This document shows, one piece after another, positions 6,835 through 49,425 of a stretch of 49,592 nucleotides of DNA; position 1 is the stretch's first letter, and each line of letters opens with the position of its first letter. The position numbers were made by a program, and so were the translations under genes. The DNA comes from an uncultured Treponemataceae bacterium (GTDB lineage Bacteria; Spirochaetota; Spirochaetia; Treponematales; Rectinemataceae), in contig CAYPHO010000001.1 in assembly GCA_964410245.1 (NCBI GenBank), positions 1 to 49,592 of the forward strand, in the 5' to 3' direction. The notes beneath the pieces were generated by a model. The model made no database searches. It saw only the letters and a list, made by a program, of their open reading frames with translations, and had not been told where the DNA came from.

Positions 6835-6845
6835 GAGACGCCTCC

Positions 6846-15121: not shown

Positions 15122-15441
15122 ACACTACCTCCGCTCGCGAGGCGTCGCCGGAAGAATGCTGCCCGCGATCCGCCGACCTAATCGCGCGGAAACATAGACG
15201 GCCCGCCGGCGCGCCGCGCGGACCCAGGCCCGGAATCATCCCGAGGCCGCTAGTATAATATTTATCCCCGGTAGCTAGGGCAAGCTTCCGAGCGGGGAGA
15301 GCGCGGCGCGACCAGCAGATCGCGTTCCGAAAGAGCTCCCAGAGGGTTAATGAAAAATACGGCGATTCGTTACCTTTCGTCGCGGAACGCGTATATGAGG
15401 AGTACGCGCTATATTCGACCGCATATAGAAGGAGGAACGAT

Positions 15442-27834: not shown

Positions 27835-27863
27835 TATGCTTCGAGTATAGCGCAGGGAATCCG

Positions 27864-33161: not shown

Positions 33162-35107
33162 AACCATTGAACCGATCTTTCGCCGCGAGCGCGCTCCTCC
33201 TAGTAGCCGTCCTGCTCTCTTCGTGCATGTCCCTGACGCAAAGCGCGCCCGGCGGCCGCGCGAGCTCGGCCGCCTCGAGCCCGGATTCGAAGAAAATGCC
33301 AGGCCATCGCCTATATCGCGCCGCCGTCGACAGCGGCGATCCGGTCGCCTTCCTGGAGGGTTACGTCCGATCCGGCGGCAGGATCGACATACCGGGAAAC
33401 GACGGATTCACGGCCCTTCATATCGCGGCATTGTATAAGAACTTTCCCGTCGCGGAATTCCTCCTGAAGAACGGCGCTGATATTCGCAAGAAGACTCTCG
33501 ACGGTACGACCGCGGGGGAGATGATGCTCATCTCCATGAAATCGAACGAGATTACGGAATGGCTTGAAACGGAGATACCGACGATCCTTATCGAGCGCGG
33601 GCTCGACCCGAACGCGCTCTTCGGAGACGGCGCGACGATCCTGCACCGCATCGCGTGGCAGCGGAATACTACGGAAGCGACGCTGAAGCTCGCGCGGCTC
33701 CTCCTATCGCGCGGAGCCGATCCGGCGCTGAAGAATAATGCCGGATACTCAGCCTTCGCGGATTCGATCGCCTTCCGTCCGAAGCCGGAGCTCCTGCGCC
33801 TCATGCTGGACAAGGAGCTCGCGAAGGCCTCGACGATCGACCTGAAGAACCTGACGCGGCCGGCGCGGGACAACATCTGCCAGGCCGTGGAATCCATGCA
33901 GAAGGACCAGGCCTATCGAGAGGTGGCGATGGTCCTCGCCGAGGCGGGATTCGACGGCGGCATCCAGGACCGCGACGGGGACTCGCTGTTGCGCGTCATG
34001 CTGAGCTCGTATAGCGGCTTCTCGATCGAATTCCTCGAGAAGCTCCTGGACAACGGCCTCCCGCTCTCCGGCCCCTATTCGGCCGATCCGAAGCGCAGCC
34101 TCTTCAGGGACTCCGCGCGCAAAGAGGACGCTGGCCTCATTCGGCTGCTTCTAGCGCGCGGCATGCCGCTTACCGACAAGGAGAGGGCGGAGGCGGCCGC
34201 CCTCGACTGGATGGAGGAGCCGGATCAGCTCGAATGCGTCCGCGTCCTCCTAAGCCGCGGCTTCGACATCAACAAGAGCGTCGGCTGGTACGGCCATAGA
34301 TCGCTCCTCCTCGACGCGGTGACGCGGGACAGGCCTTCGATACTCGAGCTCTGCCTGGACCTCGGCGCGGATCCTCGTATCGACGATTCCCGCTGGCCCG
34401 ATATCTTCCACGCGGCCGCCGATAAGGCGGGGCCAGAAATCATGGGCCTCCTGCTGGGCGGCCTCGCGTACGCGGACGCTCCCGACGCCAAGGGGCGTAC
34501 CGCCCTGCATATCGCCGCCGCCCGGCCAGGTCCCTACAACGAGACGATCCGGCTGTTGGTCGGCGCCGGCGCATCGCTCGACGCTATCGACGACGGGGGA
34601 TACACGCCCTTGGCCGCGGCGGTCGCGGCCGACCGCATGGACGTCGCGCTATTCCTCATCGAGGCCGGATCGGACGCCTCCGCGCCCCTGGCCGACCGGG
34701 GCCGCTCGCTCCTCGATATCGCGGTCCTGCACGGGCGCGAGGACATCATCCGCTTCCTCTTGGAACGTTATCCGAACTTATCCCTCTCGGTCATGGAGCG
34801 AACGATCTTCGACAAACTGCTCGCCATGAAGGGGCCGGTCGGCTACGAGTGGTACTACGGCGCGGCGAGTTCCCCCATAGCCGGGGGCGGCTACGGCTTC
34901 CCCGACGATCGGACCTGCTACTACAGATGGCGATCGGACGAGAAGAAGACCTGGGAGCTGGAGGGACGCGATCTTCGGATCTACGACGCATCGGGCAAGG
35001 AAGAAGAAGTCCTCGATTGGTACGACATGAAATGGCCCGGCGGCGACATCGACTGGTGCACCTTCCGTATCTCCGACCGGAAGATCGACGCTCACCTGAA
35101 GCCCTGA
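33158..35107 (+). CDS. Ankyrin-repeat lipoprotein
   Basis: A 649-aa ORF whose ATG overlaps the beta-lactamase stop (ATGA). The lipobox is VLLSSC. Multiple ankyrin repeats are present, e.g. GFTALHIAALYKNFPVAEFLLKNGADI and GRTALHIAAA...GGYTPLAAAVAADRMDVALFLIEAGSD. A C-terminal ~100-aa Trp/Tyr-rich region is unassigned. Confidence 0.8.
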   Translation: MKPLNRSFAASALLLVAVLLSSCMSLTQSAPGGRASSAASSPDSKKMPGHRLYRAAVDSGDPVAFLEGYVRSGGRIDIPGNDGFTALHIAALYKNFPVAEFLLKNGADIRKKTLDGTTAGEMMLISMKSNEITEWLETEIPTILIERGLDPNALFGDGATILHRIAWQRNTTEATLKLARLLLSRGADPALKNNAGYSAFADSIAFRPKPELLRLMLDKELAKASTIDLKNLTRPARDNICQAVESMQKDQAYREVAMVLAEAGFDGGIQDRDGDSLLRVMLSSYSGFSIEFLEKLLDNGLPLSGPYSADPKRSLFRDSARKEDAGLIRLLLARGMPLTDKERAEAAALDWMEEPDQLECVRVLLSRGFDINKSVGWYGHRSLLLDAVTRDRPSILELCLDLGADPRIDDSRWPDIFHAAADKAGPEIMGLLLGGLAYADAPDAKGRTALHIAAARPGPYNETIRLLVGAGASLDAIDDGGYTPLAAAVAADRMDVALFLIEAGSDASAPLADRGRSLLDIAVLHGREDIIRFLLERYPNLSLSVMERTIFDKLLAMKGPVGYEWYYGAASSPIAGGGYGFPDDRTCYYRWRSDEKKTWELEGRDLRIYDASGKEEEVLDWYDMKWPGGDIDWCTFRISDRKIDAHLKP

Positions 35108-35117
35108 GGCGGGGGCG

Positions 35118-35283
35118 GCCGCGAGAGCCGGGCGCCCTGCCCCGCGAGAGCCGCGCGACACGTGTCGCGCGGCAGCGCGGGCAGGTGCCGCGCCCCGCGA
35201 GAGCCGCGCGGCCGTGTCGCGCGGCAGCGCGGTCAGGTGCCGTGCCCCGCGAGAGCCGCGCGAAACGTGTCGCGCGGCTTCAG
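35118..35283. repeat. Three tandem ~52-bp units (plus a partial fourth), each containing a 23-24-nt GC-rich palindromic hairpin; REP-like, probable bidirectional terminator array
   Basis: The unit is CCCCGCGAGAGCCGCGCGACACGTGTCGCGCGGCAGCGCGGGCAGGTGCCGCG. Hairpins lie at 35150-35173 (a perfect 24-nt palindrome), 35203-35225 and 35255-35278. The array sits between the convergent ankyrin and pbpC genes, and the last hairpin abuts the pbpC stop. Confidence 0.8.
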
Positions 35284-37664
35284 CCTCCCGATACGCTGAC
35301 CGACACCGTCCCGCTCTCCACGAAGGCGCGGGGGAAGGCCGCGCGTATGGTGTGCGTGCCCGGCGAGATCGGCCAACGCGCCTCGTAGGGAAAGCCGACC
35401 CGCGCGAACTCGACGCCGTCGACGTACCACACGATCTGGGGCACGGCCGGGCTGACGCTAGCGCGCAGCGCCAGGGTCTGGAAGCGCGCGGGTATCTCGG
35501 GATCGACTAGTACGCGCGTCCCGTCGACGGGCGAGGTCAGGGCGACGGAGGCCGTCATGAGATCGGCGTCGCTCGCGCCCGGGACGCCGTAGCCGCGCGC
35601 GAGGGAGAAGGCGGCGTACTCGGGCCCCAGCTCGGTCACGGCCCGCATAGCGACCCGCTCCGCGGGAGTATCGGCGTCGGCCTCCTTCCCGGTCGCGGCA
35701 TCGACGACGATCCGCTTGTGGACGCCGCAGGGAAGGCGGGGCTCGGTGCCGGGCGCGAAGTACTCCAGGACGGCGCGAGGGCAGGATTCCCCCGCGCGGA
35801 AGCCCGAGTCGGGGCAGATCCTGACCGCGTTCCAGCCGCGCGGCGGCGGGAAGGGCTCCTCGCCGACCCCGCGCGCGGCCCCGGGCTGGAGCGCCGTGAA
35901 GAGGTCCAGGAGGAGCTCGGCCGCGGTCGAGCCCGCGACGTGGTTCATGCGCAGGAAATCCGAGTGGCCGATCCAGATGCCGGCGACGTAGCGGCGCGAG
36001 TAGCCGATGGCCCAGGCGTCGCGGAAGCCGTTCGAGGTGCCGGTCTTCACGGCCACGGGGAAGGGGAAGTTCGTCAGCGCCGTTCCCGCGAAGCCGGGGA
36101 GCCGCGCCTCGGTATCGGAGAGGAAGAGCGAGACCATGCGGGCGCTCGGCTCGGAGACGAGCGGGGAGCCGCCGCCGGCCGGCTGGTCGGCGAGCCAGCG
36201 CAGGGGGAGGCTCTCCCCGTCGTTGGCCAGGCATGCGTAGGCCTCGATCAGGCGGTCGAGGCTCGTGTAGATGCCGCCTACGGCCATGCCGTAGCCGTAG
36301 AAGTCCGCCGGCCGCTCGTAGTCGTGCAGGCCCAGGGCCCCCAGGCGGCCGTAGCATTCCTCCAGCCCCACTCCCTCCAGCACCTTGATCGCGGGCACGT
36401 TGCGCGAATTACCCAGGGCCGCGCGGTAGAGCATGGGGCCGAGGTAGGAGTCGTCGTAATCGGTCAGGCTGTACTCGCCTCCCTTGTCCTTCATGCGCAG
36501 GGGCATGTCGGCGAGGACGGACGAGGGGCCGAAGGCTCCCGTCTCCAGCCCCAGGGCGTAGAAGAAGGGCTTCAGCGTCGAGCCCGACGATCGGGGCACG
36601 CGGCAATAATCGATGGAGCCCTTATGCGCGTCGTCGAAGTAGTCGGCGGACCCTACGTAGGCGAGGACGTCCCCCGTCCTCGCGTCGGCCACCATGACGG
36701 CCATGTTGTCCGCCCCCAGGCGGCGGTACTCGGGGACGGCCCCGGCCGCGAGTTCGGTGGCCAGGTCCTGGATATCGGGGTCGAGGGTAGTCCGCGCGGG
36801 CCGGTCGTAGTCTCCCGGGCTCGAGCGGGCCTGCTCCTCTACGAGGCGGAGGATGTAGTGATAGCTGTCGGGCGGCCTCCGCTCGCGGATAAGCGGGTCC
36901 TTCGCCTCGAGCTCGTAGAGGGCCGCCTCGTAGCCGTCGCGATCGATCGCTCCTTGCTCGTACAGCTGGCCCAGTATGACACGGCCCCTGGCGCGGGCGG
37001 AGTAGTAGCCCTCGCGCGCGAAGAGGGCGCGGCCGTTCGGGTCCTGCGGCACCGCCATGAGCAGGGCGCACTCGGCCCAGGAGAGGTCCTGGACCGGCTT
37101 GCCGAAGCAGCGCCGGGCCGAGTAGGCGATGCCGTACATATTGCCGCCCTGGGGCAGGAGCCTTAAGTAGCGCTCCAGCATGGCCTCGCGGCCGTAGGCC
37201 AAGGTGGCGATGACGGCGGAGGCGGACTCCTCTATCTTGGCCAGGATCGTGCGCGGCCTCGGATGGGCCAGCCGGATCGCCTGCATGGCGATGGTCGAGC
37301 CGCCCTGGATCTCGCCGCCGAGGCTGCGTACGACCGCCCGGCCGAAGCCGATCGGATCGAAGCCGGGGTGGCGGTAGAACCTCCGATCCTCGACGGCGAT
37401 CGCGGTCGCGCGGACGCGTTCCGGAACGGGGTCCGGCAGGGACCAGAAGCCCAGCGCGCCGTAGATCGCCTCGCCGTCGGAGAGGAAGTCGCCGCGGGAG
37501 TCCTCGAAGAGGGGCGTGGGCTCGGGGAAGCGCGGCGGCGCGGCGGCCACGACGAGGGCGAGCCTCCAGGCCGCGAGCGCCGCGAGGAGGAATGCCGGCG
37601 CGAGGGACAGGGCCCTGCGCGCCGGCTTTAGGCGCCCGACGCGGATATCCGTCGGCCCGCTCAC
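35280..37664 (-). CDS. pbpC: Penicillin-binding protein 1C (bifunctional transglycosylase/transpeptidase-type)
   Basis: A 794-aa ORF whose GTG start overlaps the A2M stop (GTGA). GT51 motifs are EDRRFYRHPGFD and GGSTIAMQ. Transpeptidase motifs are STLKP (SxxK), SRN (SxN) and KTGT. The long C-terminal extension is as in PBP1C. Confidence 0.85.
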   Translation of the reverse strand: MSGPTDIRVGRLKPARRALSLAPAFLLAALAAWRLALVVAAAPPRFPEPTPLFEDSRGDFLSDGEAIYGALGFWSLPDPVPERVRATAIAVEDRRFYRHPGFDPIGFGRAVVRSLGGEIQGGSTIAMQAIRLAHPRPRTILAKIEESASAVIATLAYGREAMLERYLRLLPQGGNMYGIAYSARRCFGKPVQDLSWAECALLMAVPQDPNGRALFAREGYYSARARGRVILGQLYEQGAIDRDGYEAALYELEAKDPLIRERRPPDSYHYILRLVEEQARSSPGDYDRPARTTLDPDIQDLATELAAGAVPEYRRLGADNMAVMVADARTGDVLAYVGSADYFDDAHKGSIDYCRVPRSSGSTLKPFFYALGLETGAFGPSSVLADMPLRMKDKGGEYSLTDYDDSYLGPMLYRAALGNSRNVPAIKVLEGVGLEECYGRLGALGLHDYERPADFYGYGMAVGGIYTSLDRLIEAYACLANDGESLPLRWLADQPAGGGSPLVSEPSARMVSLFLSDTEARLPGFAGTALTNFPFPVAVKTGTSNGFRDAWAIGYSRRYVAGIWIGHSDFLRMNHVAGSTAAELLLDLFTALQPGAARGVGEEPFPPPRGWNAVRICPDSGFRAGESCPRAVLEYFAPGTEPRLPCGVHKRIVVDAATGKEADADTPAERVAMRAVTELGPEYAAFSLARGYGVPGASDADLMTASVALTSPVDGTRVLVDPEIPARFQTLALRASVSPAVPQIVWYVDGVEFARVGFPYEARWPISPGTHTIRAAFPRAFVESGTVSVSVSGG

Positions 37665-40600
37665 TCTCCTCCTTCGGCCTTCTTCGCCATGACCGCCGCG
37701 CCGTCGCTCGAGCCCTGGACCTCGAGCTCGTACATTCCCTGGGCCACGGCGGGCGGCAGGCCGTACTCGCCCTCGAAGTTGACGCGGGCGCGGTAGTAGA
37801 AGTCGTAGGTCCCGGCCGGCAGCGAATCGTAGTAGAAGGTGACCTGGTCGTCCTCGTAGTCGGCGTAGGCCGGCTTGCGCGTCAGGATTCCCTCCGGCTT
37901 GGCCTCGGCCGGCGAGGTGGCGAGGTTCGGGTTCATCGGCTCGAAGCCCGAGGCGAGAGGGAGGCGCACGGCCACGAACTCGCGGTCCTGCGGGTTGTAG
38001 ACGCGGACGTGGTCCTCGACCACGGTCCCGACGTCGAGGAACATGACCAGGCCCGCCTTCGCCTCCATCTTCCTGGCGAGCCGCTTCCCGTCGCCGTAGT
38101 CCAGGATCTCGCGCGTTACCGCGAAGCCCTCGTTGACCGCGGCCACCTTCGAGCCGGGCAGGGCCGGCACGTAGCTCGTATCGAGGTAGAGGGTCAGGCC
38201 CTTCGCCGCGCTGCCCTTGATCCTGGCCTTGAGCATCGAGTCCGAGTCGATCGAGAGCCTGGCGATGGCCTTGTCCTTCAGGTCCACGGCCTTCCAGGCC
38301 TTGCCGTCCCAGAGCTCCGCGACTCCCTTGCTTTTTGTCCCGCTCTTGATCGCGTCGGCCAGGCTCATGATGACGCAGGTCGTCGTGTACGTGTCGCCCC
38401 AGCCCCGCTCGCCCGCGGCCGCCAGGAGGTAGTCGAGGATCGCCTTGGTCTCGGCGGACCTGGGCTTGTCCTTGGCGTAGGCCGAGTAGATCGCGGCCAT
38501 AGTCCTATAGTCGCGATAGAGGAAGGGATTGCCGAACCAGGAGCGCTTCTCCTGCAAGCCCGCGACGACGAGGGCCCCTCCCTGGCGCTGGAAGGCCACG
38601 GCTGCCTGGACCTTGCCCAGGAGCTTGCCGAGCTGAGATGAGTTCACGCCCTTCTTTCCCTTCAGGACGAGCCAGATCCGCGCCTGCGTATAGGCGTCGG
38701 CTTCCTGCGCGAGCGACAGGAGCTCCTGGCCGTAGGCCGGGTCGTAATAGCCCGCCGCGTCGAGGGCGCAGAGCGCCATGCTCCGCTCCAGGGCGCCGTA
38801 GCCGCGGGTGAGCCGCCGGTAGTCCGAGCGCAGGGCCTCCCTCAGGGCCCGAAGGGGCCTGTCCAGGAGGACGGCGGGGACGGAGTAGCCCGCGGCCTTC
38901 GCGTCGACGAGGAACTCGACGACGTAGGCGGTCAAGTACACCTTGCCCTCGGAGCCCGGGTAGAAGGAATACAGGCCGCTGTCGGTAATGACCGACTCGA
39001 GGTAATTGAAGAGATAGCCGAGGGCGCCCTCGGAGACGCGCAGCTCGTCGGGCATGCCCGCGGCGCCCAGCGCGACGCTCATCGCGATCGGCGCGTGCAG
39101 CTTGGCGATGCGCTGCTCGGTGCAGCCGTAGGGATAGGCGGCCTGGAAGCGCAGCGAGCGCAGGACCTGGACGAGCTCGGGCATCGCGGTGAGGTAGAGG
39201 GTCTGCGTGGTCGCCCCCTCGCGCGCCTTCTCGCTCGGCCAGGGGAAATCGTAGGCCTGGCCGGCCTTCGGCTCGTACGTCGCCTCGAGCCGCTTGGTGA
39301 TCGTGTCGCGCCTGACGGGCAGCTCGAGCATGAAGGCGTCCTTGGCGCCGTCGGACAGCCTTCCCGCGCCCAGGGTGACCGATACGGACTGGTCGGCCTT
39401 GGCCGCCAGCGAGAGGGGCGCCTTCAGGGGGAAGTAGAGGCGGGTCGGCAGCTTCTGATCGAGCTCGATCGCCCGCGTCGTCCCGGTTTGTCCCGTCGAG
39501 AGCAGGAGCCCGCCGCCGAGCTCGATCTCGGCCTGGGCCTTCCCTCCCTCGCCCTCGACCACGCGGGCCATGCCGCCGGCCGTGATCTCGTCGCCCGGCC
39601 TGACGAAGCGCGGCAGGGCTTCCTGCACCACGACGGGCAGGCGCATGGCGACCGTGGACTTGGCGGTCCCGAATTTGTCGGCGCCCGAGGTCGCGATCGC
39701 GCGGACCGCGAACTCGGTGAGGTTGTCGGGCATGTCGATGGTGACCGAGCCCTTGCCGCCCTTGATCTCGATGGCGGGATTGAAGTAGGGGACGGTCTTG
39801 AAATTCTTCCGCACGGTGTTCTTGTCCAGGAGGTCGGCGAACTTCATGGCCTCGGCCATGTCGCCGCCGGCCAGCTCGTCGAAGCTCAGGTTGCCGACGG
39901 TCAGGTTGCGCGTGTCCGAGATGCTGACGGCGGACTGCACGTCCGTGATGAAGGAGGACAGGGGCGAGGCGAAGCGCTCCTGGGCCAGGGCCAGGACCGC
40001 GCGGTCGACCAGCCACAGCGCCACGCTGCCGTCGGCGGGCTTGCCCTCGCGGTCGACCATGACCATGTCGATCGTGAGCTTGGCGCCCGGCGTCGACTTC
40101 CCGTCGTGCATGAGCTGGAGGTCGACGCGGTTGGACGAGGGATCGACGGTTATCCAAGTGGTATTCGCCACGGAGACCGGCTTCAGGCGGTCGGACCCGG
40201 CCTCGAAGGAAAGCGGGCCCGGCAGGCGGCCGCGCATCAGGACGATATGGACGGGGAAGCGGGGGACGAGGTCCTCCGTGACCGCGAGCTCGATCATGCC
40301 CTGCCCGTTCTCGACGTCGATCCAGCGGTACAGGTTACCGCTGGGCCGCTCGATGACGACGAGGGCCTCGGCGGACTGGTAGGGGCTTTGGATGAGGATC
40401 TTGGCCGTATCGCCGCTCTCGTAGACCTTCTTGTCGAGGCTGGTCTCGAAGACCGCCGCGGTCGTCCGCTTCCAGGCGACGGGAGTCGGCCCCGAGACGT
40501 AGAGGTCGCGCTTGACCGACTGCATGCGCCCGACCGAGTCGTAGCCCTGGATCTCGACGATGTACACGCCCGCGTTCTCGACGGGGATATCGACGGACAG

Positions 40601-43450
40601 CGCGTCGGCTCCCGAGACGAGGGCCTTCTCCGAGACCAGGTTGTCGACGACGTCGGATACGTACTTCGCCTCGCCGGTCGTGATGTCGCTCTCCGACAAG
40701 TAGGAATGCCACTGGCGCTCGTAGAGCCGGAGCTTCAGCTCCTTGCCGGCCAGGGTCTTCTCGAGGTGGTCGAGCACGACGACAGAGGCCTTGACCGCCA
40801 TCGACTCGGTCTCGAATTTCGGGAGCTTGAGGCCGATCGAGAAGGGCGGCAGGGCCAGCACGGTCTTCGACTGCGACACCGTCTGCGCGTCGGCGCCGTA
40901 CACCGAGGCCTGGACGCGGTAGTAGCGGCTCTGAATGGACTGGGCCGCTCGGGGATCGATGGTCAATTTCGCGCGCCCGTCGTCGTCGGTGACGTCCTCG
41001 GACTCCGAGGCGGAGATGCCCTCCTCGCGGTAGCCGCCCCCGACGCTCAGGTAGCTGGAGAAGCTGTAGTCGGGCCAGGCCGCCGGCGATATGCGCCAGG
41101 AGCCCTCGCTGACCGACCACTCGACGCTCTGCCCGACTACCTTTCCGCCGGCGTAGTACGAGGCGTTCAGCTCGATCTCGAAGGGCTCGTCGAAGGGCAC
41201 GCGGTCGGGGCCGTTCAGGTCTATCTCGAAGCTGGGTACCCGGTACTCCTCCTTCTGGAAGCTTACCGAGGCGAGCGGCGCCTCCTTCTCGTCGAGGAGC
41301 GTCGCCCTATAGGAGCCCGAGGGCAGGTCCTTCTCGTCGAAGAGCTGGTAGAAGTAGCCGGAGCCCTTGACCTCGACCTTGTAGCGGAACTCCTTGCCGT
41401 CGGGGCAGTACACGGACAGCGTCCGCTTGGCCGACGCGTCGTCGCGCTTTATCAGGCCCTTCTCCCGGATGCGGACGAAGCCCTGGATGTGGACGGCCTC
41501 GGCCGAGCGGTAGATGGGGCGCTCGGTGAAGAGGTAGGCGAGGTGCTGGGCTGCGAGGTCGCGCTCGTCGGCCTTCATGGTCAGCCAGCCCAGCCAGCGC
41601 GAGCGGGGCCCGTACCAGTGGTTGTTGTGGAAGTAGGGCGGCGCCTGGGCGGCGTCGACGACGAGGACGTCGCCCGCCTGGGACACGACGATCCGGTCCA
41701 CCTCCTCGTCGAGGGGCTTCGAGTGGATGTATGTTAATTTTCCTTCGCGGTCGGTCTTGCCCGAGACGAGGGACTTGGCCGCGACCGAGCCGTCCTTGTC
41801 CGCGTAGATCGAGTCGAGCGAGATCGAGGCCCCGGGCACCGGCTGCCCGGTGGAGAGCGAGGTCACCGCGAACACGATGCCGCGGCGCTCCTCGACGACG
41901 GTCAGGCAGAGGTCGGTGACCTGGACGCGCATGAAATTCCGGCCGCCGTCCGAGCCGAGGCTCCGGTAGCCGACGAGGTAGGTCCCCGGAGCTCCCTCTT
42001 TGCCCATCCTCTTGAAGGCGGGCGCGAGGTCCACGCCGAAGGAGGCCGCCCCGCCCTTCTCCTTGGAGGGAAGGGAGACGACCTCGGAATACTCGGGGCT
42101 GCCCAGGAGCCTGATCTGCCTGGCGAGATCTGTGCCGTAGGCGGGCTCCTCGCCCGGCATGGGGGGAGCGGCCTTCTCGTCGACGCTCAGGACCGACTCG
42201 GGGAAGGGCCAGTAGTTCAGGTCCAAGGGATCGATCGCGTTGACGCGGAGGTCGACCTTATCGAAGCCCCGAGCCTCCATGGGCAGGCTGCGCGGGCCGT
42301 AGCGCTCGAGTATCGCCTGACCCCCGGTCCACTTGATGTAGGGCGAGAGGGCCTTGTAATAGAAGTGGAAGGACGAGGGGGCGAAGGCCGAGAGCCTCCT
42401 GCCCGAGGAGCTCGCCAGGTCCTGGTGCCGTAGCTCGAGCTTGTAGTCGGTGTCGGGATCGCGGTCGAAGTACAAGAGTAGCCTCTGTCCCGAGATATCG
42501 AATCGCAGGTCCCTGACCGAGGGCGAGAGCGAGACGAAGGACTTGAGCGCCGCCACCGAGGTCGAGGAGGAGAGCGACTCGGAGAACTGGATTACCAGGG
42601 GGCTCGTTCCCGTGCCGCAGTTGATCGCCTGGTCGGCCGGATAGGAGGAGCCCGAGGACGAGACCGGATAGCTCGTCGAGCTGGAGCCGAAGGAGAGCAC
42701 CCTGAAGTCGGTGCGGGTGGCGTACTGGTACACCGCCGCCGAACCGGGAATTCCCTCGTCCAGCGACAGCCGTATGCGCAGGGTAATCGCCTTCCCGTCC
42801 CCGATGGGGGCGTTCAGGTGCACGAGGTACTTGGCCGCCGACTTGCGGTCGATGCGGTCGAGCTCCTTGATCTCGAAGTCGCGCCTGCCCAGGCGGGTCG
42901 GCTGCTGCGAACCCAAGCCCGGCAGGCTCCTGACCTCGAGGCCTATCATATCGGCCAGCGAGTCGAGCGGCACCGGGGAGGCGAAGCCGATCGTGATGTC
43001 CTGGACCGAGGAGAGATTGGTAGAGCCGTGGGAAGGCGCCACCGAGATCGGCGGCGACAGGAGGGTCGAGCGCGAGAAGCTGCCTCCCGGCGTCTTGAAG
43101 GAGAAGGTCCTAAGCGCGGGCCAGCTCTCGGCCGGCAGGAACTGCAGGGTCTTCGAGTCGAGCCAGCGGTACTCGCCCGGGTGCGCGGGAGAGATCGACA
43201 GGAGGCTCGACGCGTCGTCGCCGGGGCCGCCGTTCTTCGGCCCGCGGTCCTGCGCGAAGAAGACCGTAACCGGATCGTATTCCCGCAGGAAGCGCTCGGG
43301 CAGGAGCCGCTCGGGCTCGTTCGAGCGGGCGCCCGATTGAGCGGACGCGCTTCCCGCGAGAAGCAGCGCGAAGGCGATCGTCGCCAGCGCGCCCGAGATC
43401 GAGGGCCGCCTGGCGGCGCCGAGGATCGTCCTGGCCGTCTTATCTCCCAT
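37661..43450 (-). CDS. Bacterial alpha-2-macroglobulin family protein with an intact thioester motif (YfhM/ECAM-type by pbpC linkage)
   Basis: From ORF 37661..43543, trimmed to ATG 43448-43450 (MGDKTARTILGAARRPSISGALATIAFALLLAGSASAQS, a type-I-like signal peptide), giving 1,929 aa. The thioester motif YPYGCTEQ has its CTEQ codons at 39113-39124 (complement). The protein is large and multi-domain, and is followed directly by pbpC. Confidence 0.85.
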   Translation of the reverse strand: MGDKTARTILGAARRPSISGALATIAFALLLAGSASAQSGARSNEPERLLPERFLREYDPVTVFFAQDRGPKNGGPGDDASSLLSISPAHPGEYRWLDSKTLQFLPAESWPALRTFSFKTPGGSFSRSTLLSPPISVAPSHGSTNLSSVQDITIGFASPVPLDSLADMIGLEVRSLPGLGSQQPTRLGRRDFEIKELDRIDRKSAAKYLVHLNAPIGDGKAITLRIRLSLDEGIPGSAAVYQYATRTDFRVLSFGSSSTSYPVSSSGSSYPADQAINCGTGTSPLVIQFSESLSSSTSVAALKSFVSLSPSVRDLRFDISGQRLLLYFDRDPDTDYKLELRHQDLASSSGRRLSAFAPSSFHFYYKALSPYIKWTGGQAILERYGPRSLPMEARGFDKVDLRVNAIDPLDLNYWPFPESVLSVDEKAAPPMPGEEPAYGTDLARQIRLLGSPEYSEVVSLPSKEKGGAASFGVDLAPAFKRMGKEGAPGTYLVGYRSLGSDGGRNFMRVQVTDLCLTVVEERRGIVFAVTSLSTGQPVPGASISLDSIYADKDGSVAAKSLVSGKTDREGKLTYIHSKPLDEEVDRIVVSQAGDVLVVDAAQAPPYFHNNHWYGPRSRWLGWLTMKADERDLAAQHLAYLFTERPIYRSAEAVHIQGFVRIREKGLIKRDDASAKRTLSVYCPDGKEFRYKVEVKGSGYFYQLFDEKDLPSGSYRATLLDEKEAPLASVSFQKEEYRVPSFEIDLNGPDRVPFDEPFEIELNASYYAGGKVVGQSVEWSVSEGSWRISPAAWPDYSFSSYLSVGGGYREEGISASESEDVTDDDGRAKLTIDPRAAQSIQSRYYRVQASVYGADAQTVSQSKTVLALPPFSIGLKLPKFETESMAVKASVVVLDHLEKTLAGKELKLRLYERQWHSYLSESDITTGEAKYVSDVVDNLVSEKALVSGADALSVDIPVENAGVYIVEIQGYDSVGRMQSVKRDLYVSGPTPVAWKRTTAAVFETSLDKKVYESGDTAKILIQSPYQSAEALVVIERPSGNLYRWIDVENGQGMIELAVTEDLVPRFPVHIVLMRGRLPGPLSFEAGSDRLKPVSVANTTWITVDPSSNRVDLQLMHDGKSTPGAKLTIDMVMVDREGKPADGSVALWLVDRAVLALAQERFASPLSSFITDVQSAVSISDTRNLTVGNLSFDELAGGDMAEAMKFADLLDKNTVRKNFKTVPYFNPAIEIKGGKGSVTIDMPDNLTEFAVRAIATSGADKFGTAKSTVAMRLPVVVQEALPRFVRPGDEITAGGMARVVEGEGGKAQAEIELGGGLLLSTGQTGTTRAIELDQKLPTRLYFPLKAPLSLAAKADQSVSVTLGAGRLSDGAKDAFMLELPVRRDTITKRLEATYEPKAGQAYDFPWPSEKAREGATTQTLYLTAMPELVQVLRSLRFQAAYPYGCTEQRIAKLHAPIAMSVALGAAGMPDELRVSEGALGYLFNYLESVITDSGLYSFYPGSEGKVYLTAYVVEFLVDAKAAGYSVPAVLLDRPLRALREALRSDYRRLTRGYGALERSMALCALDAAGYYDPAYGQELLSLAQEADAYTQARIWLVLKGKKGVNSSQLGKLLGKVQAAVAFQRQGGALVVAGLQEKRSWFGNPFLYRDYRTMAAIYSAYAKDKPRSAETKAILDYLLAAAGERGWGDTYTTTCVIMSLADAIKSGTKSKGVAELWDGKAWKAVDLKDKAIARLSIDSDSMLKARIKGSAAKGLTLYLDTSYVPALPGSKVAAVNEGFAVTREILDYGDGKRLARKMEAKAGLVMFLDVGTVVEDHVRVYNPQDREFVAVRLPLASGFEPMNPNLATSPAEAKPEGILTRKPAYADYEDDQVTFYYDSLPAGTYDFYYRARVNFEGEYGLPPAVAQGMYELEVQGSSDGAAVMAKKAEGGE

Positions 43451-46400
43451 TGTCGTAGTCCTCGCTTTCGTAATCGCCCTCGTAGTACTCGTCTTCGTAG
43501 TATTCGCCGTCTTCGTAGTACTCGTCCTCGCCGTAGTAGTCATCCTCGACGTACCGGTCGCGGCCGCCCTGCGAGGACGCGGAGCGCCTCGTCATCGGAA
43601 CCGAGATCGAGGCGGAAGCCCCGCCCTCGGACTTATAGCGGTCGACGACCTCCCGGGGAACGCCGACCCTCGAGCCGTCCAGGCCCTCGAGCGCCAGCTC
43701 GTACTCGATCGGCGCCGAGTCCAGGCCCTTCACGACGAAGAGGTAGGAGCCCGCCTCGAGGACGGGGAAGCAGAGCGGGCCCTCGGCTACCAGGCCCTGG
43801 CGGGAATCGTAGAGGAAGCCCGTAAGGCCGTCGGTCTCGGCCTTGACGCCGACGCCGACCCGGCCGGGAGCGGCCGCCTCGAAGGACCAGGCCTGGTACT
43901 CGCGGACTCCTATGAAGGCGCTCGTGCCCACGGCGTCCGCAGCAGGGCGGCTCTCGACCCTGTCGGCCCTGATATAGCCTCCCGCGGCGGCCCCGCGCGC
44001 GGGCCGCTGCCACACCGAGTACTTGCCGGCGGGCAGCCAGGCGAAGAGGTGCATGTCCTCGCGGCTTCCCGACAGGGCGACGCGCCGCTCTATCGAGCCT
44101 CCCGACAGCGAGAGGACGCCGGGGCCGGGGCAGGAGAGGTCGACGTAGCCGGGGGCCTTCATCGTCAGGTCGAAGGCGTCGCCCTTGCCCGTCAGCGTCG
44201 CGGCGCCGTCCAAGGCGCGCGTCGCGGACTTGCCCTGCTCGATCAGGCCCTCGACCTCCTTGCCTTTCTTGGCCAGGTAGGCGCGCGCCAGCCCCCCGGA
44301 GGCCGAGCGCAGCCTCAGCCTTCCCGAGGCCGCGGCCATGGAGCTGTAGAGCCCCGAGGCGGGATCGTGAATGAGTTTCGCATAACTTCCGTCCGCGGCC
44401 TCGAGCTCGGCCTCGCACTCGTCTCCCGCGAGGCACAAAAGGTCGCCCTCGGAAGCCTTTACGACGAGGGCGACGCCCTCGGGGGGGATGCCGACGGCCT
44501 CGAAGCTCCTCGAGGCGGAAAGCTCGCCCGAGCCGGCCGGGCCGGGCGGCATGACCGAGAGCCTGAGGCTCGACTCGGCCGATCCCGTATTGGCGACGAT
44601 CAGGACGCAGGCGCCGAGCGCTATGGTGTCGGCCTTCCGCTCGTCCAGGCTCGCGGCGGTGGCGTAGGCCTCCCCGCCCTTCCAGGCGGACAGCACGAGA
44701 TCGCGGCCCATCAGCAGGGACAGGGCGCAGGCCGGGGCGTCCATCGCTATCGCCTGGCCCGGCGCGACGGAGATCGTGCGCTTGTCCCCGACCTTCAGCG
44801 CGGGGAGCGAGGCCATCGCGTAGTACCCGACCCCGGCGCCTGCGCGCCTCGTCGGCGATTCGCCGGATGCGGCGGCGCCGCGCTCGCCGTCCCAGATCCT
44901 CGCCTTCCAGTCCCCCGGGGGAAGGAGGGCGACGCTGCCCTGGGACCAGGACGCCGAGGCGTCCCAATCGAAGAGGGGCGCGCCCTTGGCGGCGGATTCC
45001 TTGGCCGAGACGCCGCAGCGGAACTGGCCCCTGGTGTCGACCGACACCAGGATCGCCGCGTCCCGCGAGGAGACCGAGAATCCCTGGCCTAGGTCCGACA
45101 GCGCGAGCACGGCGCCGTTATCCTCGCCGAGCGCGAGGCTCCGAGTCGAGGAATCGGCGTCGGGGGCCCAGGCCCAGCCCCCGGCCTCGTAGGTCGAGAA
45201 GGGGGCGGCGCCCGGATCGGCGCAGGGAATCTCCAGGCCGGGCGAGACGAGGAGGGCGCCGGACGCGACGACCGCCGACAGGGCGTCGGGGTTCAGCATC
45301 CGCGCGGCCTCGCCCGCCTTGAGCGAGAGCGGCGCGGATATCGACGCTTGCTTCTCGGGCAGGCGCTTGACCGAGAGGGTCGGCCTGGAGGGAATCGGAG
45401 TCCATGCGTAGACCGAGTAGCGCGCGTTCGCCCGCAGGGGGACGGCGACCTGGCCCTCGCCCGCCGCGATGAAGTCGTCGCCGCGGTAGATCCGGAGGCT
45501 GACCGGCGCCCCGGACTGGGGATCGGCGGCCGCCCGTATCAGGTAGAGCCCCTCGCCGGCCTTCGCGTCGAAGGGAAGGATCACCCCCTCCGCGTCCATG
45601 CGAAGGGCGCCCTCGTAGGGCGCTGCCGCGACGACGGCGCTCTTCGCGTTGCGCGACGTCAGCCTGAGCTCCACCGGCTCGCTCGAGCCGGCCAGCGAGC
45701 CGACGTCCAGCCGGTATACGCCGGCCTTCAGCCGCCGCACGATGTCGAAGTTCCAGTCGGGCCCGTTGTCGTCGGACCGGTCGACCAGCGTAGCCCCCGC
45801 CTCGTCCATGCGGTACAGCCGCGCCGAGACGTCGCTGCGCCCCAGGCTCCACAGCTCGTAGAAGCCGTCCTCGGGCACGCTGACGCCGGTCGAGCTGGGC
45901 CTCGAGCCGGATACCGCGATCCCGGAGACGCCGGGCGCGAGGACCGAGGTGTAGACGCCGATCGAGTAGCGCAGCTGGTTCGCCTTATCGCGCGGCCGGA
46001 CCGACAGCGTATAGGCGCCGCGGCCCAGCTTGATCTCGCCGCGCTCGTCCGGCCCCAGGCCGCGCTTCTCGCCCGGTCCCTCCAGGACCGCGTCGAAGGC
46101 GGCGGGCAGGTCGAGCCGCGCCAGGAGCGGGGAGGGAACCGAGAAGGACCAGCGGTCGGGCTCGGCCTTCTCGCTCCAATCCGCGGAGGCGGGGAAGTTC
46201 AGGACGAGGCCCCTCGTCCCGGGGACCGGGGCGGCGATCGCGGGCGGCTCGAGGCTGCGCACCCAGGTCAGCCTGTTCGTGTCGATGGACACGGGCAGCG
46301 AATAGAGCAGGTAGCGGCCGGCGCTAAGGCGCAGCCGAGTCCTGCCGTCGCCGCGATAGGCCGGGAAGCCCGCCTCGTCCTCGAGCCGGACCTGGAAGCC

Positions 46401-48704
46401 GCCCGTCAGCGCGATCGAGCGGAGTTCGATCTCCTCTTCCTTCGAAAGCGAGAAGGAGAAGATAGCGGCCTCGTCGGCCGGCACCGCCCTGCGATCGATC
46501 GCGCCGCCCTCCAGCGAGGCGGTGGCGGCCAAGGGCACGTTGTCCATGCGTACGGCGCCCCTGCCCGTCGAGCGGTCGAGGGTCGAGGCCGCAAGGTAGT
46601 ATCGGCCCGGGCGCAGCCAGGCGCGGATCGCGGCGTTCTTTCCGTAGCCGTTCGCCCTGGCCGAGAAGAGGCCCAGCCTAGACGCGCTGCGGATCGACAG
46701 CGAGGTCGACAGCCTTCCCAAAGTCTCGATGACGTAGACCCCGCTTTCCTTCACGGTGAAGGAATAGAGGGCGGTATCGGATCGGCCGAAGTCCCTCCAA
46801 TCGAGCTTCCCGGGAGAGAGGGCGGTCGTGCCCGAGCCGAAAGCCGTGGAGACGGGCGCGGGAAGATCGTCGAAGGACCTCGTCATCGAGAAGGCGGCGC
46901 CGAGATCGGCGGCCGAGGAATTGCGAAGCGACAGGGTCCGGTTGCCGGGGATGATTGTCCCCCCGTCGAGGGGCGCCTGCCCGCCCAGGGTCAAGCTTCC
47001 CTGGCCGGAGGCCCAGGCTAGGACGGAGCGGCTGGAGATCGAGCTGGGGAACTCGAGGCTCTCCCTGGGACCCAAGTCGAGCGATAGCCCGCCGTCGAGG
47101 GCTATCGGATAGGGCGTGAAGGAGTAGCCGAAGGCGCGGGACGGTCCGGGACCCGCCGTCACGTAATACGACCTTCCCGAGCTATCCGGGGCGATCGCCC
47201 AGGACATCGACTGCCTATTCTTGGGCGGCTCCTTCCCCAGGGCAGAGGACGACTTCCCTAATCCCTTCTTCTGCACCGCGAAGTCGAGCACTCCCAGGCT
47301 GCGCGCCGAGACCGTCAGGACGTAGTAGCCCTGGCGAAGCTCATAGGTCTCGGCCCATGCGGGCGCCGCTTTCGTCCCCGAAGCATAGCTCCTAAGGCTC
47401 GAGTCGAGCGAGCGCAGCGTGTAGAGGGCCGCGCCCTGCGTCTTCCCCTCCTTCTCGGCTATCTGGTAGGAGCCCTCCTCGTCCACGCGCAAGAGGACCT
47501 GTCTAGCGCCAGAATCCCCGAGATTGCATCGCGCCCTGAAGGGATCCGACCTGGTCAGGGGAATGGCGAAGTCGATGGCCACGGAAGCGTCTCCCCGCGA
47601 GTCGACGCGGTAGACGAGCCCGCTTAAGGGAAGCTCCGGAGCGTTGCTCCTGGCTCCGATGACCGTCAGGAGGCCGCCGGCCTTGGGAACGAAGCCCGCG
47701 GCCGAGGCCGGCTCGAGGCCGCGGAAGGCGTCGAGACGGAGCTTGTCGCCGGGCGCGGCCTCGACCCGAAGGAGGGCCTTGCCAGTAGGCACGCGGACGG
47801 AGCAGCGCAGGTCGATCGAATCCTTCCGGATGCCCGAGTTGCTGGAGGAAGCCAGGCGATCGCCGCCCGGGGAGTACGAGAGCGAGGCGAGGGAAGCGAG
47901 CCCCTCGGATTCCCGGGAGAGCCAGGACGTATCGACGTCCTCGACCATGATGAAGTCGCGTCCGAAGGGCGAGACGGAAAGATCCAGCCTGCCTCCGACC
48001 GGCATGTCGGCGAAGCCCGAGCGGACGTACAGGGGAGATCGGCCATCGTCCTTTTCCCATGGCCTGCGCTCCCCGCCGTACAGCCGCGCGAGGTAGAGCC
48101 CGGCCTTGGCCGGGACCGAGGCGCAGGCGTAGCCCATGGGCCTCCCCTCCTCGACCTGGCGGATCTCCCGCACGGGATAGGAGCCTAGTAGGTACTGCCC
48201 CTCGCGCCAGAGCTCCAGGACCGCTAAGTCCCGACCCAGGGCCTCGACCTCGACCGCCCCGTCCTCGCGCAGGTATATCCAATAGGAAGCCGACTGCAGG
48301 TCGGCGAGCGACCCGCCCACCGCCTTGCCGGGAATAAGCAGGGGCCACGCGGACTCCTTCGCGCCATTGACCTCCGCGAAGGCCCGGGCCTCGAGGCTAG
48401 GCCGTGCCCCCTCGGCATCCATACCCTCGACTCGAACCCTATACTCGCCCGGATCGAGGCTGATATCGATGCGGCCGTCCTTCGAGCCGAGGGAGCCGCT
48501 CCTCGCGATCTCCCCTTCCATCTTATCGTGCAGGCTGATCGGCACTCCCGTCGGCGACTTCGCGACGACGCTTACCCGAGCCGCCTTCCCGAGCGATAGG
48601 AGGGCCGCGTTCCCTTCCAGCGGCCCGAGCGCGACGCCCGATCCTGCCTGGGCGTACAAGGACGCCGCGAACGCGGCGGCGGCAATCGCGAAGAGTTTCC
48701 TCAT
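43440..48704 (-). CDS. Giant secreted protein (1,754 aa) built from repeated PPC-like beta-sandwich modules with an acidic Tyr-rich C-terminal tail
   Basis: The ORF has an ATG with GAGGT upstream and the signal peptide MRKLFAIAAAAFAASLYAQA. A recurring pattern (D/E..Y/W.F ... G.Y.[LIV].[LIV]) appears at least 10 times, e.g. DTALYSFTVKESGVYVIETLGR...LRPGRYYLAAS and REYQAWSFEAAAPG...LEAGSYLFVVKG. The tail is YVEDDYYGEDEYYEDGEYYEDEYYEGDYESEDYDNGR. The TAA stop lies 11 nt inside the A2M gene. Confidence 0.75.
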   Translation of the reverse strand: MRKLFAIAAAAFAASLYAQAGSGVALGPLEGNAALLSLGKAARVSVVAKSPTGVPISLHDKMEGEIARSGSLGSKDGRIDISLDPGEYRVRVEGMDAEGARPSLEARAFAEVNGAKESAWPLLIPGKAVGGSLADLQSASYWIYLREDGAVEVEALGRDLAVLELWREGQYLLGSYPVREIRQVEEGRPMGYACASVPAKAGLYLARLYGGERRPWEKDDGRSPLYVRSGFADMPVGGRLDLSVSPFGRDFIMVEDVDTSWLSRESEGLASLASLSYSPGGDRLASSSNSGIRKDSIDLRCSVRVPTGKALLRVEAAPGDKLRLDAFRGLEPASAAGFVPKAGGLLTVIGARSNAPELPLSGLVYRVDSRGDASVAIDFAIPLTRSDPFRARCNLGDSGARQVLLRVDEEGSYQIAEKEGKTQGAALYTLRSLDSSLRSYASGTKAAPAWAETYELRQGYYVLTVSARSLGVLDFAVQKKGLGKSSSALGKEPPKNRQSMSWAIAPDSSGRSYYVTAGPGPSRAFGYSFTPYPIALDGGLSLDLGPRESLEFPSSISSRSVLAWASGQGSLTLGGQAPLDGGTIIPGNRTLSLRNSSAADLGAAFSMTRSFDDLPAPVSTAFGSGTTALSPGKLDWRDFGRSDTALYSFTVKESGVYVIETLGRLSTSLSIRSASRLGLFSARANGYGKNAAIRAWLRPGRYYLAASTLDRSTGRGAVRMDNVPLAATASLEGGAIDRRAVPADEAAIFSFSLSKEEEIELRSIALTGGFQVRLEDEAGFPAYRGDGRTRLRLSAGRYLLYSLPVSIDTNRLTWVRSLEPPAIAAPVPGTRGLVLNFPASADWSEKAEPDRWSFSVPSPLLARLDLPAAFDAVLEGPGEKRGLGPDERGEIKLGRGAYTLSVRPRDKANQLRYSIGVYTSVLAPGVSGIAVSGSRPSSTGVSVPEDGFYELWSLGRSDVSARLYRMDEAGATLVDRSDDNGPDWNFDIVRRLKAGVYRLDVGSLAGSSEPVELRLTSRNAKSAVVAAAPYEGALRMDAEGVILPFDAKAGEGLYLIRAAADPQSGAPVSLRIYRGDDFIAAGEGQVAVPLRANARYSVYAWTPIPSRPTLSVKRLPEKQASISAPLSLKAGEAARMLNPDALSAVVASGALLVSPGLEIPCADPGAAPFSTYEAGGWAWAPDADSSTRSLALGEDNGAVLALSDLGQGFSVSSRDAAILVSVDTRGQFRCGVSAKESAAKGAPLFDWDASASWSQGSVALLPPGDWKARIWDGERGAAASGESPTRRAGAGVGYYAMASLPALKVGDKRTISVAPGQAIAMDAPACALSLLMGRDLVLSAWKGGEAYATAASLDERKADTIALGACVLIVANTGSAESSLRLSVMPPGPAGSGELSASRSFEAVGIPPEGVALVVKASEGDLLCLAGDECEAELEAADGSYAKLIHDPASGLYSSMAAASGRLRLRSASGGLARAYLAKKGKEVEGLIEQGKSATRALDGAATLTGKGDAFDLTMKAPGYVDLSCPGPGVLSLSGGSIERRVALSGSREDMHLFAWLPAGKYSVWQRPARGAAAGGYIRADRVESRPAADAVGTSAFIGVREYQAWSFEAAAPGRVGVGVKAETDGLTGFLYDSRQGLVAEGPLCFPVLEAGSYLFVVKGLDSAPIEYELALEGLDGSRVGVPREVVDRYKSEGGASASISVPMTRRSASSQGGRDRYVEDDYYGEDEYYEDGEYYEDEYYEGDYESEDYDNGR

Positions 48705-48730
48705 GTCGACCTCGATTCGATCGTCCGATT

Positions 48731-48770
48731 TGGCGTATACATTAGATATCGGTAATATATACCGTAAGAG
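48731..48770. promoter_or_regulatory. AT-rich palindrome-containing core of the divergent promoter region between the giant-protein operon and trxA
   Basis: Within the 117-bp intergenic region are GTATAC, GATATC and CGGTA-ATATA-TACCG (48750-48764, 5-bp arms). These include TAATAT/TATATT -10-like hexamers. Function is inferred only. Confidence 0.3.
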
Positions 48771-48821
48771 CGCCCGCTTCGATACCGCGGGAACGCTGAA
48801 CGACCGCTCGAAGGGGGAAAA

Positions 48822-49142
48822 ATGAGCGCTTTGAAAGAGCTGAACGAAGCGAATTTCGACCAGGAAACCGCGAACGGGCTCGTAATGGTAGATTTCTGGG
48901 CCGCTTGGTGCGGTCCCTGCCGGATGCAGACTCCCATCCTCGAATCCGTAGACAGAAAAATCGGTACGAAGGTCAAAATCCGCAAGCTGAACGTCGACGA
49001 TGCCCCGAACGTCGCGGCGCGCTTCGGCATCCAGAGCATCCCGACCATCCTCGTCTTCAAGGACGGCAAGGTCGCCCAGAACCTCGTAGGCCTTCAGACC
49101 GAGGTCACTCTCGTTTCGATCGCGGATTCGCTGTCTAAATAG
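48822..49142 (+). CDS. trxA: Thioredoxin
   Basis: A 106-aa ORF with the WCGPC active site and typical thioredoxin sequence (FGIQSIPTILVFKDGK). AAGGGGG lies upstream of the ATG. Confidence 0.9.
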   Translation: MSALKELNEANFDQETANGLVMVDFWAAWCGPCRMQTPILESVDRKIGTKVKIRKLNVDDAPNVAARFGIQSIPTILVFKDGKVAQNLVGLQTEVTLVSIADSLSK

Positions 49143-49179
49143 AAGATTCCGAGAAGCGCGCAGATCGGCGAACAGCGAA

Positions 49180-49211
49180 GGCCCCGGAGCGATCCGGGGC
49201 CTATGTTTTTT
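49180..49211 (+). terminator. Rho-independent terminator of trxA
   Basis: A perfect 9-bp stem GGCCCCGGA/TCCGGGGCC with a GCGA tetraloop, followed by TATGTTTTTT. Confidence 0.75.
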
Positions 49212-49213
49212 CC

Positions 49214-49425
49214 TTATAATAATTTAGTACGAATAAAGCCTTCAGCGAAGGGCCCCGGAAGAACCGCGCCGCTTCGCTTGTTTCCAAAGTAATCAGTGGC
49301 GAAAACTATATCCGTACCGTCAGAGTTCTCGTATCTCTCCTCGGGCTCGAAGGCTTTCCTAGCGTATCCGAATCGATCATCTTCGCGGCGAAGTCCTTAA
49401 TGTAGTCTTTAGTGCTCCTCATCAT
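49214..49425 (-). pseudogene. Possible small frameshifted ORF in the AT-rich right-edge segment
   Basis: The minus strand reads ATG ATG AGG... (MMRSTKDYIKDFAAKMIDSD...) and soon hits TAG. A protein-like reading continues in another frame (...RFGYARKAFEPEERYENSDGTDIVFATDYFGNKRSGAVLPGPFAEGFIRTKLL*, stop at 49214-49216), but that frame has no start codon of its own. The total length is not a multiple of 3. No family recognised. Confidence 0.2.

Follow-up and report, generated by a model that had tools for sequence, protein, structure and literature searches.

The 49,592-nt contig CAYPHO010000001.1 from an uncultured Treponemataceae bacterium, here called the window, carries on its minus strand (35280-48704) three adjacent open reading frames (ORFs). 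In order of reading they encode a giant secreted protein, an alpha-2-macroglobulin (A2M) and a penicillin-binding protein of the 1c type (PBP1c, gene pbpC). An ORF scan found zero intergenic DNA between them (Table 1). The earlier note on this DNA had described this gapless run, with the TAA of the giant gene lying 11 nt inside the A2M ORF, a GAGGA exactly 8 nt upstream of the A2M ATG and a GTGA in which the A2M stop and the pbpC start overlap; all of these positions were confirmed.

Table 1 Features of the three-gene unit and its flanks, with coordinates in the window
Feature	Coordinates	Strand	Description
Thioredoxin gene	48822-49142	+	Divergent from giant gene; Pfam E = 7.5e-26
Spacer giant/thioredoxin	48705..48821	.	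117 bp, lower G+C; presumed promoter region of the three-gene unit
Giant gene	43440..48704	-	1,754 aa, ATG start, ~190 kDa product, secreted, predicted all-beta
Giant signal peptide	48642..48704	-	MRKLFAIAAAAFAASLYA/QAG, Sec-type; no lipobox cysteine; read from translation
PPC match in giant	46587..46778	-	Residues 643-706, PF04151, 26.7 bits vs cut-off 25.9
Giant C-terminal tail	43443..43568	-	42 aa, disordered; 11 Tyr + 19 Asp/Glu; DDYYGEDEYYEDGEYYEDEYYEGDYESEDY
Giant/A2M junction	43440..43463	-	GAGGA 43459-43463; A2M ATG 43448-43450; giant stop TAA 43440-43442
A2M gene	37661..43450	-	1,929 aa, ATG start; longest reading frame 37661..43543
A2M N-terminal motif PERFLREYDPV	43268..43300	-	Residues 51-61; hallmark of giant-linked clade
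A2M thioester motif CTEQ	39113..39124	-	Residues 1443-1446
A2M/pbpC junction	37661..37664	-	GTGA: A2M stop and pbpC GTG start overlap; GGAGGAG just before
pbpC	35280..37664	-	794 aa, GTG start, PBP1c-type class A penicillin-binding protein
Palindromic tandem unit	35139..35278	.	52 bp, GC-rich, 2.7 copies; between pbpC and convergent ankyrin-repeat gene
Ankyrin-repeat gene	33158-35107	+	649-aa product, mostly ankyrin repeats; convergent with pbpC

The giant and A2M genes share 11 nt, and the giant gene ends in GAC AAT GGG AGA TAA. Both the ribosome-binding site and the start codon of A2M are held within the giant gene, in the DNA that encodes the giant's tail. A longer version of the A2M ORF starts from an ATG at 43543, and the added stretch translates as MTTTARTSTTKTANTT...; this start is not credible because the extension is the Tyr/Asp/Glu tail of the giant read in another frame, whereas the start at 43450 precedes a normal signal peptide. 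In a sequence scan of the operon interior, terminator-like sites occurred only at chance level and promoter-like sites not at all. The three genes are probably read as one transcript with translational coupling. Close junctions are also the rule at other loci: where independent gene calls were available, the giant and A2M genes overlap or lie ≤7 nt apart in 13 of 14 cases. In 67 loci, a median of 161 nt separates the stop codon of the giant gene from the conserved motif near the A2M N-terminus; this corresponds roughly to a signal peptide plus linker, so that intergenic DNA is usually absent.

The linkage of the three genes was surveyed from both sides. The giant-side set consisted of contigs carrying homologues down to 25% identity, five Spirochaetota metagenome-assembled genome (MAG) loci obtained by a genome scan with an alignment of a closer subset of the giant family, two Rhizobium plasmids and two MAGs from named phyla. 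In this set, all 18 loci in which the DNA beyond the giant gene could be read have A2M directly downstream, and pbpC follows A2M in 15 of 16; the single clear exception, L004, retains the giant and A2M. For the A2M side, metagenomes were scanned with an alignment of A2Ms, which yielded 80 loci with A2Ms 33-45% identical to that of the window, and their ORFs were searched with a profile hidden Markov model (HMM) of the giant family. Of 70 informative loci, 67 have a giant gene directly upstream, and in 61 of 69 pbpC lies downstream. The gene content around the triad differs at every locus. Since the arrangement recurs in dozens of unrelated contigs, it lies far beyond chance. The three proteins are also co-inherited: among 47 complete triads their pairwise-identity matrices correlate with Spearman coefficients of 0.86-0.90. 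The giant evolves fastest, with a mean identity of 27.8% compared with 42.6% for A2M and 44.2% for PbpC. Thus, the linkage of the giant to A2M and pbpC that the earlier note had proposed was found in both directions, and the opposite outcome, giant genes that are normally unlinked to the pair, was not observed.

The first homology search with the giant retrieved 31 proteins, each of 1,600-1,880 aa and each annotated as hypothetical. To gauge the size of the family, 1.84 billion representative proteins were searched with an HMM built from the first 1,130 residues. It matched 859 clusters (50% identity) at E <= 1e-30 and 1,660 at E <= 1e-10, and the best 150 matches all scored above 930 bits across the full profile. 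A further profile search with 44 sequences retrieved no relatives beyond those already found. Family members have a median length of 1,746 aa (5-95% range 1,649-1,864 aa) and share on average ~28% identity. A length range this narrow at such low identity is unusual in repeat proteins and points to a three-dimensional architecture that is fixed, unlike that of an adhesin built as variable beads on a string. A possible lipobox was seen in just three of 151 members. A precomputed PF21226 tag proved to be a sub-threshold match to the MalQ_N beta-sandwich.

Named sources of the family include Spirochaetales, Treponemataceae, Rectinemataceae, Alphaproteobacteria and Pseudomonadota MAGs, Thermoanaerobaculia, Vicinamibacteria and Elusimicrobiota, and the triad was confirmed in one Elusimicrobiota and one Vicinamibacteria MAG. 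It also occurs in cultured organisms. Plasmid pRapFH23b of Rhizobium acidisoli FH23 encodes a hypothetical protein followed by an MG2 domain-containing protein and a transglycosylase domain-containing protein, with the accessions WP_245293026.1, WP_054185423.1 and WP_054185422.1, and three genes in identical order are present on plasmid pRheCIAT894e of Rhizobium sp. CIAT894. The three-gene unit is therefore kept across at least four phyla, namely Spirochaetota, Acidobacteriota and Elusimicrobiota plus the phylum of the cultured Rhizobium. The RefSeq start of the R. acidisoli giant (LLTVDTPG..., position 10043 of locus L098) falls inside the first conserved domain and leaves the protein without a signal peptide; the true start probably lies further upstream.

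Some relatives of the giant carry additional domains. An LprI/DUF1311 domain (PF07007) is located at the N-terminus of nine of them (CIAT894, P0062, P0163, P0113, P0124, P0031/L005, L076, L084 and L096). The Rhizobium sp. CIAT894 giant, encoded at 8467-14115 of L099, owes its RefSeq name "lysozyme inhibitor LprI family protein" to this domain alone. In the 2,073-aa member P0043, SH3_3 domains are inserted in the C-terminal half (residues 1456-1545), and this protein also has a match to a Y_Y_Y domain. SH3_3 domains are typical cell-wall-binding modules. Among the unusually long members the Pfam scan revealed just LprI, SH3_3 and weak PKD/beta-sandwich noise. LprI domains occur in proteins of the periplasm that have a link to the biology of peptidoglycan hydrolases; LprI of Mycobacterium tuberculosis additionally has an MliC domain, and ScwA of Salmonella controls MltD levels (PMC7933661). 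The LprI and SH3_3 fusions place the giant in the peptidoglycan compartment and give it a thematic tie to lytic enzymes, and nothing more.

Within the window's giant, the PPC match at residues 643-706 is the sole stretch above a Pfam threshold, and it falls in the highly conserved block 651-850. Otherwise the Pfam scan gave one sub-threshold match to CsgH, no model in NCBIfam or PADLOC matched the giant, and a PDB sequence search with the family profile returned nothing significant. Self-comparison with hhalign revealed internal repeats of ~85-100 residues over most of the protein's length, at probabilities of up to 95%; further PPC-like units are visible only by this route. AlphaFold2 models are entirely beta, both for residues 1-1130 (mean predicted local distance difference test score, pLDDT, 82.1; predicted TM-score, pTM, 0.67) and for residues 1100-1754 (pLDDT 71.8), with the last ~80 residues disordered. 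The pLDDT and pTM of the N-terminal model suggest a defined packing between domains. In a Foldseek search against the PDB, the top match for residues 1-1130 was 5iku, the s3a-s3b collagen-binding domains of ColG (E = 7e-8, probability 1.00), which ranked fourth for the C-terminal model. Other leading matches were CUB arrays (cubilin, neuropilin), and no enzyme fold was retrieved. Likewise, the Pfam scan detected no peptidase domain in any family member scanned. In these models the giant forms a chain of some 15-16 beta-sandwich domains of PPC/CUB-like type, none of them catalytic. We also considered the giant as a diverged A2M paralogue and rejected this: family-against-family hhalign gave a probability of just 0.6%, and Foldseek matches to A2M, TEP1 and C5 reached probabilities of only 0.14-0.28 at TM < 0.1.

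All-beta repeat arrays are frequent in adhesins, and one relative weakly matches a type IX secretion system (T9SS) sorting domain (E = 9e-4). The giant might accordingly be read as an adhesin or a surface-layer-type repeat protein with a function of its own that merely shares a transcript with A2M. However, adjacency of ~96-100% in both directions, in several phyla and amid unrelated flanks, is not expected of such a neighbour, and neither are the conserved overlapping junctions. The constant length differs from that of adhesins, which vary in repeat number, and nearly all members lack an anchor or sorting signal. We disfavour this explanation and regard it as exceedingly improbable. Instead, the giant is very probably a dedicated functional partner of the A2M.

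The regions of the giant are unequally conserved, with peaks at residues 51-250, 651-850 and 951-1000 and a minimum at 1000-1550. Acidic Gly/Tyr tails like that of the window's giant occur in its close clade and in P0013 and P0028, and with 81-95% gaps in these positions across the family they are lineage-specific. One explanation for such features is that of a decoy or bait array, in which the beta-sandwiches and, in some lineages, the acidic Tyr-rich tail absorb proteases or cationic lytic proteins such as lysozyme and antimicrobial peptides and either present them to the A2M or act as a buffer. This would fit the faster evolution of the giant (28% mean identity against 43-44% for its partners), its C-terminal third as the least conserved part, the Pfam description of PPC domains as typical appendages of secreted proteases, and a 42-aa tail, rich in acidic residues (19) and Tyr (11), that has acidic counterparts in several lineages. 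However, the tail is missing in most of the family, a constant number and length of domains together with the conserved blocks 51-250 and 651-850 would not be expected of a pure decoy, and a bait-like protease-sensitive region was not identified in the giant. We therefore consider a decoy unlikely.

The A2M of the window has the Pfam domains bMG3, MG2, A2M_BRD, A2M and bMG10, whereas NCBIfam has no model for it. In the PDB its sequence matches 4u48 and 5a42 (E ~1e-25), which represent Salmonella Sa-A2M and E. coli YfhM and bear the name lipoprotein. Its Sec signal peptide (...LLLAGSASA/QSG) is free of Cys and thus provides no lipid anchor, and a lipobox is present in none of 38 giant-linked A2Ms. 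All 38 share a motif P-(E/D)-x-F-L-R-x-(W/Y)-D-P, in short FLRxWDP, soon after the signal peptide. The window's A2M can be aligned with YfhM only from residue 639 (YfhM residue 389) at 23% identity, and its N-terminal region is ~250 residues longer than that of YfhM and different. The giant-linked A2Ms form a distinct clade. In E. coli K-12 the yfhM-pbpC pair has no giant gene and is instead accompanied by the divergent sseA. A second case is found in L001, a relative whose giant is 59% identical to the window's. Here a second A2M-pbpC pair (58-8131, minus strand) is located divergently 2 kb upstream of the triad, so that two different A2M systems stand side by side. The second A2M is 23% identical, has no CxEQ and no N-terminal motif, and is not accompanied by a giant gene. 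The E. coli pair and the second pair in L001 indicate that the giant is specific to one A2M subfamily and is not a general feature of A2M loci.

The thioester motif CxEQ is present in 43 of the 47 A2Ms from complete three-gene units. The A2Ms of L005 (15439-21156) and of the R. acidisoli locus L098 (15136-21105) also lack it, and both loci retain the giant; L098 retains pbpC too, while the contig of L005 ends before the gene after A2M becomes identifiable. The retention of the giant next to A2Ms without CxEQ indicates that the partnership is independent of the thioester. This bears on the idea that the giant is an assembly or restraint factor, a chaperone-like partner that assists folding of the A2M, protects its thioester or blocks premature triggering and is released on activation, in analogy to MagB and MagD. 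Translational coupling with the giant first in the operon, the similar size of giant and A2M, and the MagB-dependent stability of MagD as a precedent would agree with such a factor. However, since the triad survives the loss of CxEQ (L005, Rhizobium), thioester protection is not its whole role, and the sequence offers nothing that separates this proposal from a scaffold. We judge it very unlikely.

The PbpC of the window comprises the Pfam domains Transgly, Transpeptidase and BiPBP_C and an N-terminal hydrophobic membrane helix at residues ~19-45. Its GT51 and transpeptidase motifs are intact: EDRRFYRHPG at 92, GGSTI at 121, STLK at 362, SRN at 420 and KTG at 540. The best NCBIfam model is PBP_1c (TIGR02073), although its 450.7 bits fall short of the equivalog cut-off of 494.2; architecture and the C-terminal BiPBP_C fit this assignment. 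With intact catalytic motifs, pbpC present in 15 of 16 and 61 of 69 loci, and LprI and SH3_3 fusions pointing to binding of peptidoglycan or hydrolases, the giant might mainly be in the service of PBP1c, binding wall or hydrolases in the periplasm as a ruler or activator, and the module would then belong to wall maintenance and not to protease defence. Against such a peptidoglycan-synthesis accessory stands the tighter linkage of the giant to A2M than to pbpC, as it always abuts A2M and never pbpC. Moreover, L004, L017, L023, L024, L028 and L070 have the giant and A2M without pbpC, and gaps between A2M and pbpC reach up to 100-435 nt. This alternative is quite unlikely in our view.

Taken together, we consider it fairly probable that the three genes encode a conserved, coupled periplasmic module in which the giant, as a scaffold or a platform for recognition, binds the A2M and PBP1c repairs the wall. 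The earlier note had interpreted the giant as a stoichiometrically coupled third component. Linkage in both directions, co-inheritance and conserved junctions strongly support a linked third component, whereas a 1:1 stoichiometry, physical contact and the role of the giant are inferred. According to our proposal, the three genes would be co-transcribed, and the giant and A2M would be produced in linked amounts. The giant would be exported by the Sec system, fold into a beta-sandwich array of fixed length and bind A2M in a defined stoichiometry within the periplasm. In this way it may hold the soluble A2M trap in the cell-wall compartment and perhaps engage incoming lytic proteins, while the membrane-anchored PBP1c would repair peptidoglycan. 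Because this A2M clade lost, or never had, the lipid anchor of YfhM, one would reasonably expect a protein partner to position it. The specific role of the giant as a scaffold or recognition component is more tentative, possible rather than probable.

Several points weigh against the proposed module. Contact between giant and A2M is so far only inferred, and the pTM of 0.67 for the N-terminal model derives from a shallow alignment of 11 sequences. As the giant is free of an anchor in 148 of 151 members, it could tether A2M only via peptidoglycan, PBP1c or the outer membrane. A Pfam scan detected no LprI or SH3 domain in the window's own giant. For the LprI domain itself no experiment shows inhibition of lysozyme, and ScwA gives no protection from lysozyme (PMC7933661). 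Furthermore, three members of the A2M clade (L047, L081 and L095) have no giant gene, L047 being a solo A2M amid housekeeping genes, and A2M can thus exist without the giant, at least locally. Finally, the defence role of the A2M-PBP1c pair is itself still a hypothesis in the literature.

A more far-reaching variant of the module, which we regard as speculative and unlikely, would make the triad a third widespread class of macroglobulin systems. The CUB/PPC array would be the recognition arm, the soluble thioester A2M the capture arm, and PBP1c would provide repair. Once bound to damaged wall or to incoming lytic enzymes such as proteases and lysozyme-type hydrolases, the array would recruit the A2M or trigger it. 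Such a division of labour would have a functional parallel in complement, where CUB-domain recognition components work with thioester proteins of the C3 family.

On the 5' side of the unit, the earlier note had pointed to a divergent, AT-rich promoter region shared with the thioredoxin gene. The spacer and a dip in GC content were indeed seen (~0.57-0.60 across 48500-49299 compared with 0.65-0.74 within the operon). A search of the spacer for the sigma-70 consensus gave no match, and a promoter in these 117 bp is presumed. The hairpin array that had been reported 3' of pbpC was found as 2.7 palindromic copies. Each 52-bp unit contains the palindrome GCCGCGCGAC-N4-GTCGCGCGGC and no T-tract, the repeats are confined to 35139-35278 within the window, and RNA of this region folds far better than shuffled sequence (z = -4). 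They possibly form a transcript end or stabiliser, and could be a repetitive extragenic palindromic (REP)-like element or an unusual transcript end.

Some neighbouring genes deserve mention in their own right. Ankyrin repeats, as encoded by the gene convergent with pbpC, are rare among free-living bacteria; another gene of this kind lies ~8 kb upstream of the triad in the Elusimicrobiota locus L100, probably by coincidence. Further along the window (27073-29166, minus strand) a 697-aa ORF has as its sole Pfam match a Leu/Phe-tRNA protein transferase domain at residues 493-658 and is thus ~3x as long as the normal enzyme. In L009, genes for a subtilisin-type (S8) and a trypsin-type peptidase (1347-6448) are located a few kb upstream of the triad. 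In L095, an EcsC-family gene and an Acyl_transf_3 acyltransferase gene (12979-15285) lie between A2M and pbpC.

Structurally, bacterial A2Ms are homologous to the complement and A2M proteins of animals. For their physiological role in bacteria and for the reason of their pairing with PBP1c only hypotheses have been put forward so far. Our findings describe a large A2M clade in at least four phyla that is nearly always paired with an undescribed 190-kDa partner, so that the unit of study grows from two genes to three. The partner belongs to a new protein family that comprises at least ~860 clusters when grouped at 50% identity. The Rhizobium plasmids offer genetically tractable carriers for a direct test of the envelope-defence hypothesis.

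The A2M literature consulted recognises two arrangements, a Type I (thioester)/PBP1c two-gene arrangement and a Type II six-gene mag/yfaS operon. YfhM/ECAM-type A2M genes were reportedly described by Budd et al. 2004 as characteristically adjoining pbpC. The earlier note had held that neither arrangement contains a giant component, and this agrees with our searches: literature, Pfam, NCBIfam and PADLOC provided no name for it, and the sources call it hypothetical. In the A2M literature searched we found no description of a third coupled gene, although Budd et al. 2004 may mention one in passing. None of the three operon proteins matched the anti-phage models of PADLOC. The giant founds a protein family for which Pfam and NCBIfam have no dedicated model.

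With the Type I systems (YfhM-PbpC, Sa-A2M) the window shares an A2M with macroglobulin domains, bait region and CTEQ thioester, a pbpC directly downstream with overlapping stop and start, and a presumed periplasmic location. In contrast to E. coli, which has none, an extra 5.3-kb giant gene is coupled upstream. The window's A2M is not a lipoprotein, whereas YfhM and Sa-A2M are inner-membrane lipoproteins, and it is ~280 aa longer, with its own N-terminal region carrying FLRxWDP and 23% identity to YfhM. In the Type II systems (P. aeruginosa magABCDEF and the E. coli yfaS operon), too, genes for dedicated periplasmic accessory proteins accompany that of the A2M. The stability of MagD and its localisation to the membrane depend on MagB and further partners from the operon, and the accessories form a complex with the A2M (PMC5764988). 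However, MagD has no thioester while CTEQ is present here, and the mag operon consists of six genes and has no pbpC. The only neighbours of A2M are the giant gene and pbpC, neither of mag type, as judged for the giant by its Pfam scan (PPC, sub-threshold CsgH and no other family) and not by direct sequence comparison with the Mag proteins.

The giant itself can be compared with two further groups. LprI/DUF1311 proteins such as M. tuberculosis LprI and Salmonella ScwA share their domain with nine giant relatives, but it is absent from the window's giant. With the PPC superfamily (PF04151; 5iku) and CUB arrays the giant shares tandem jelly-roll beta-sandwiches and one Pfam PPC match above the cut-off, which is marginal at 26.7 bits; TM-scores of the giant are low since only pairs of domains superpose. 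PPC domains are known from secreted peptidases, which carry one to three of them appended at the C-terminus, whereas the giant has a predicted ~15 or more domains in a fixed architecture and no peptidase. In conclusion, the locus resembles Type I in its A2M domains and the adjacency of pbpC, departs from it in having a non-lipoprotein A2M and three genes, and does not fit Type II; for the function of the giant, the accessory proteins of Type II would nevertheless be the best analogy.

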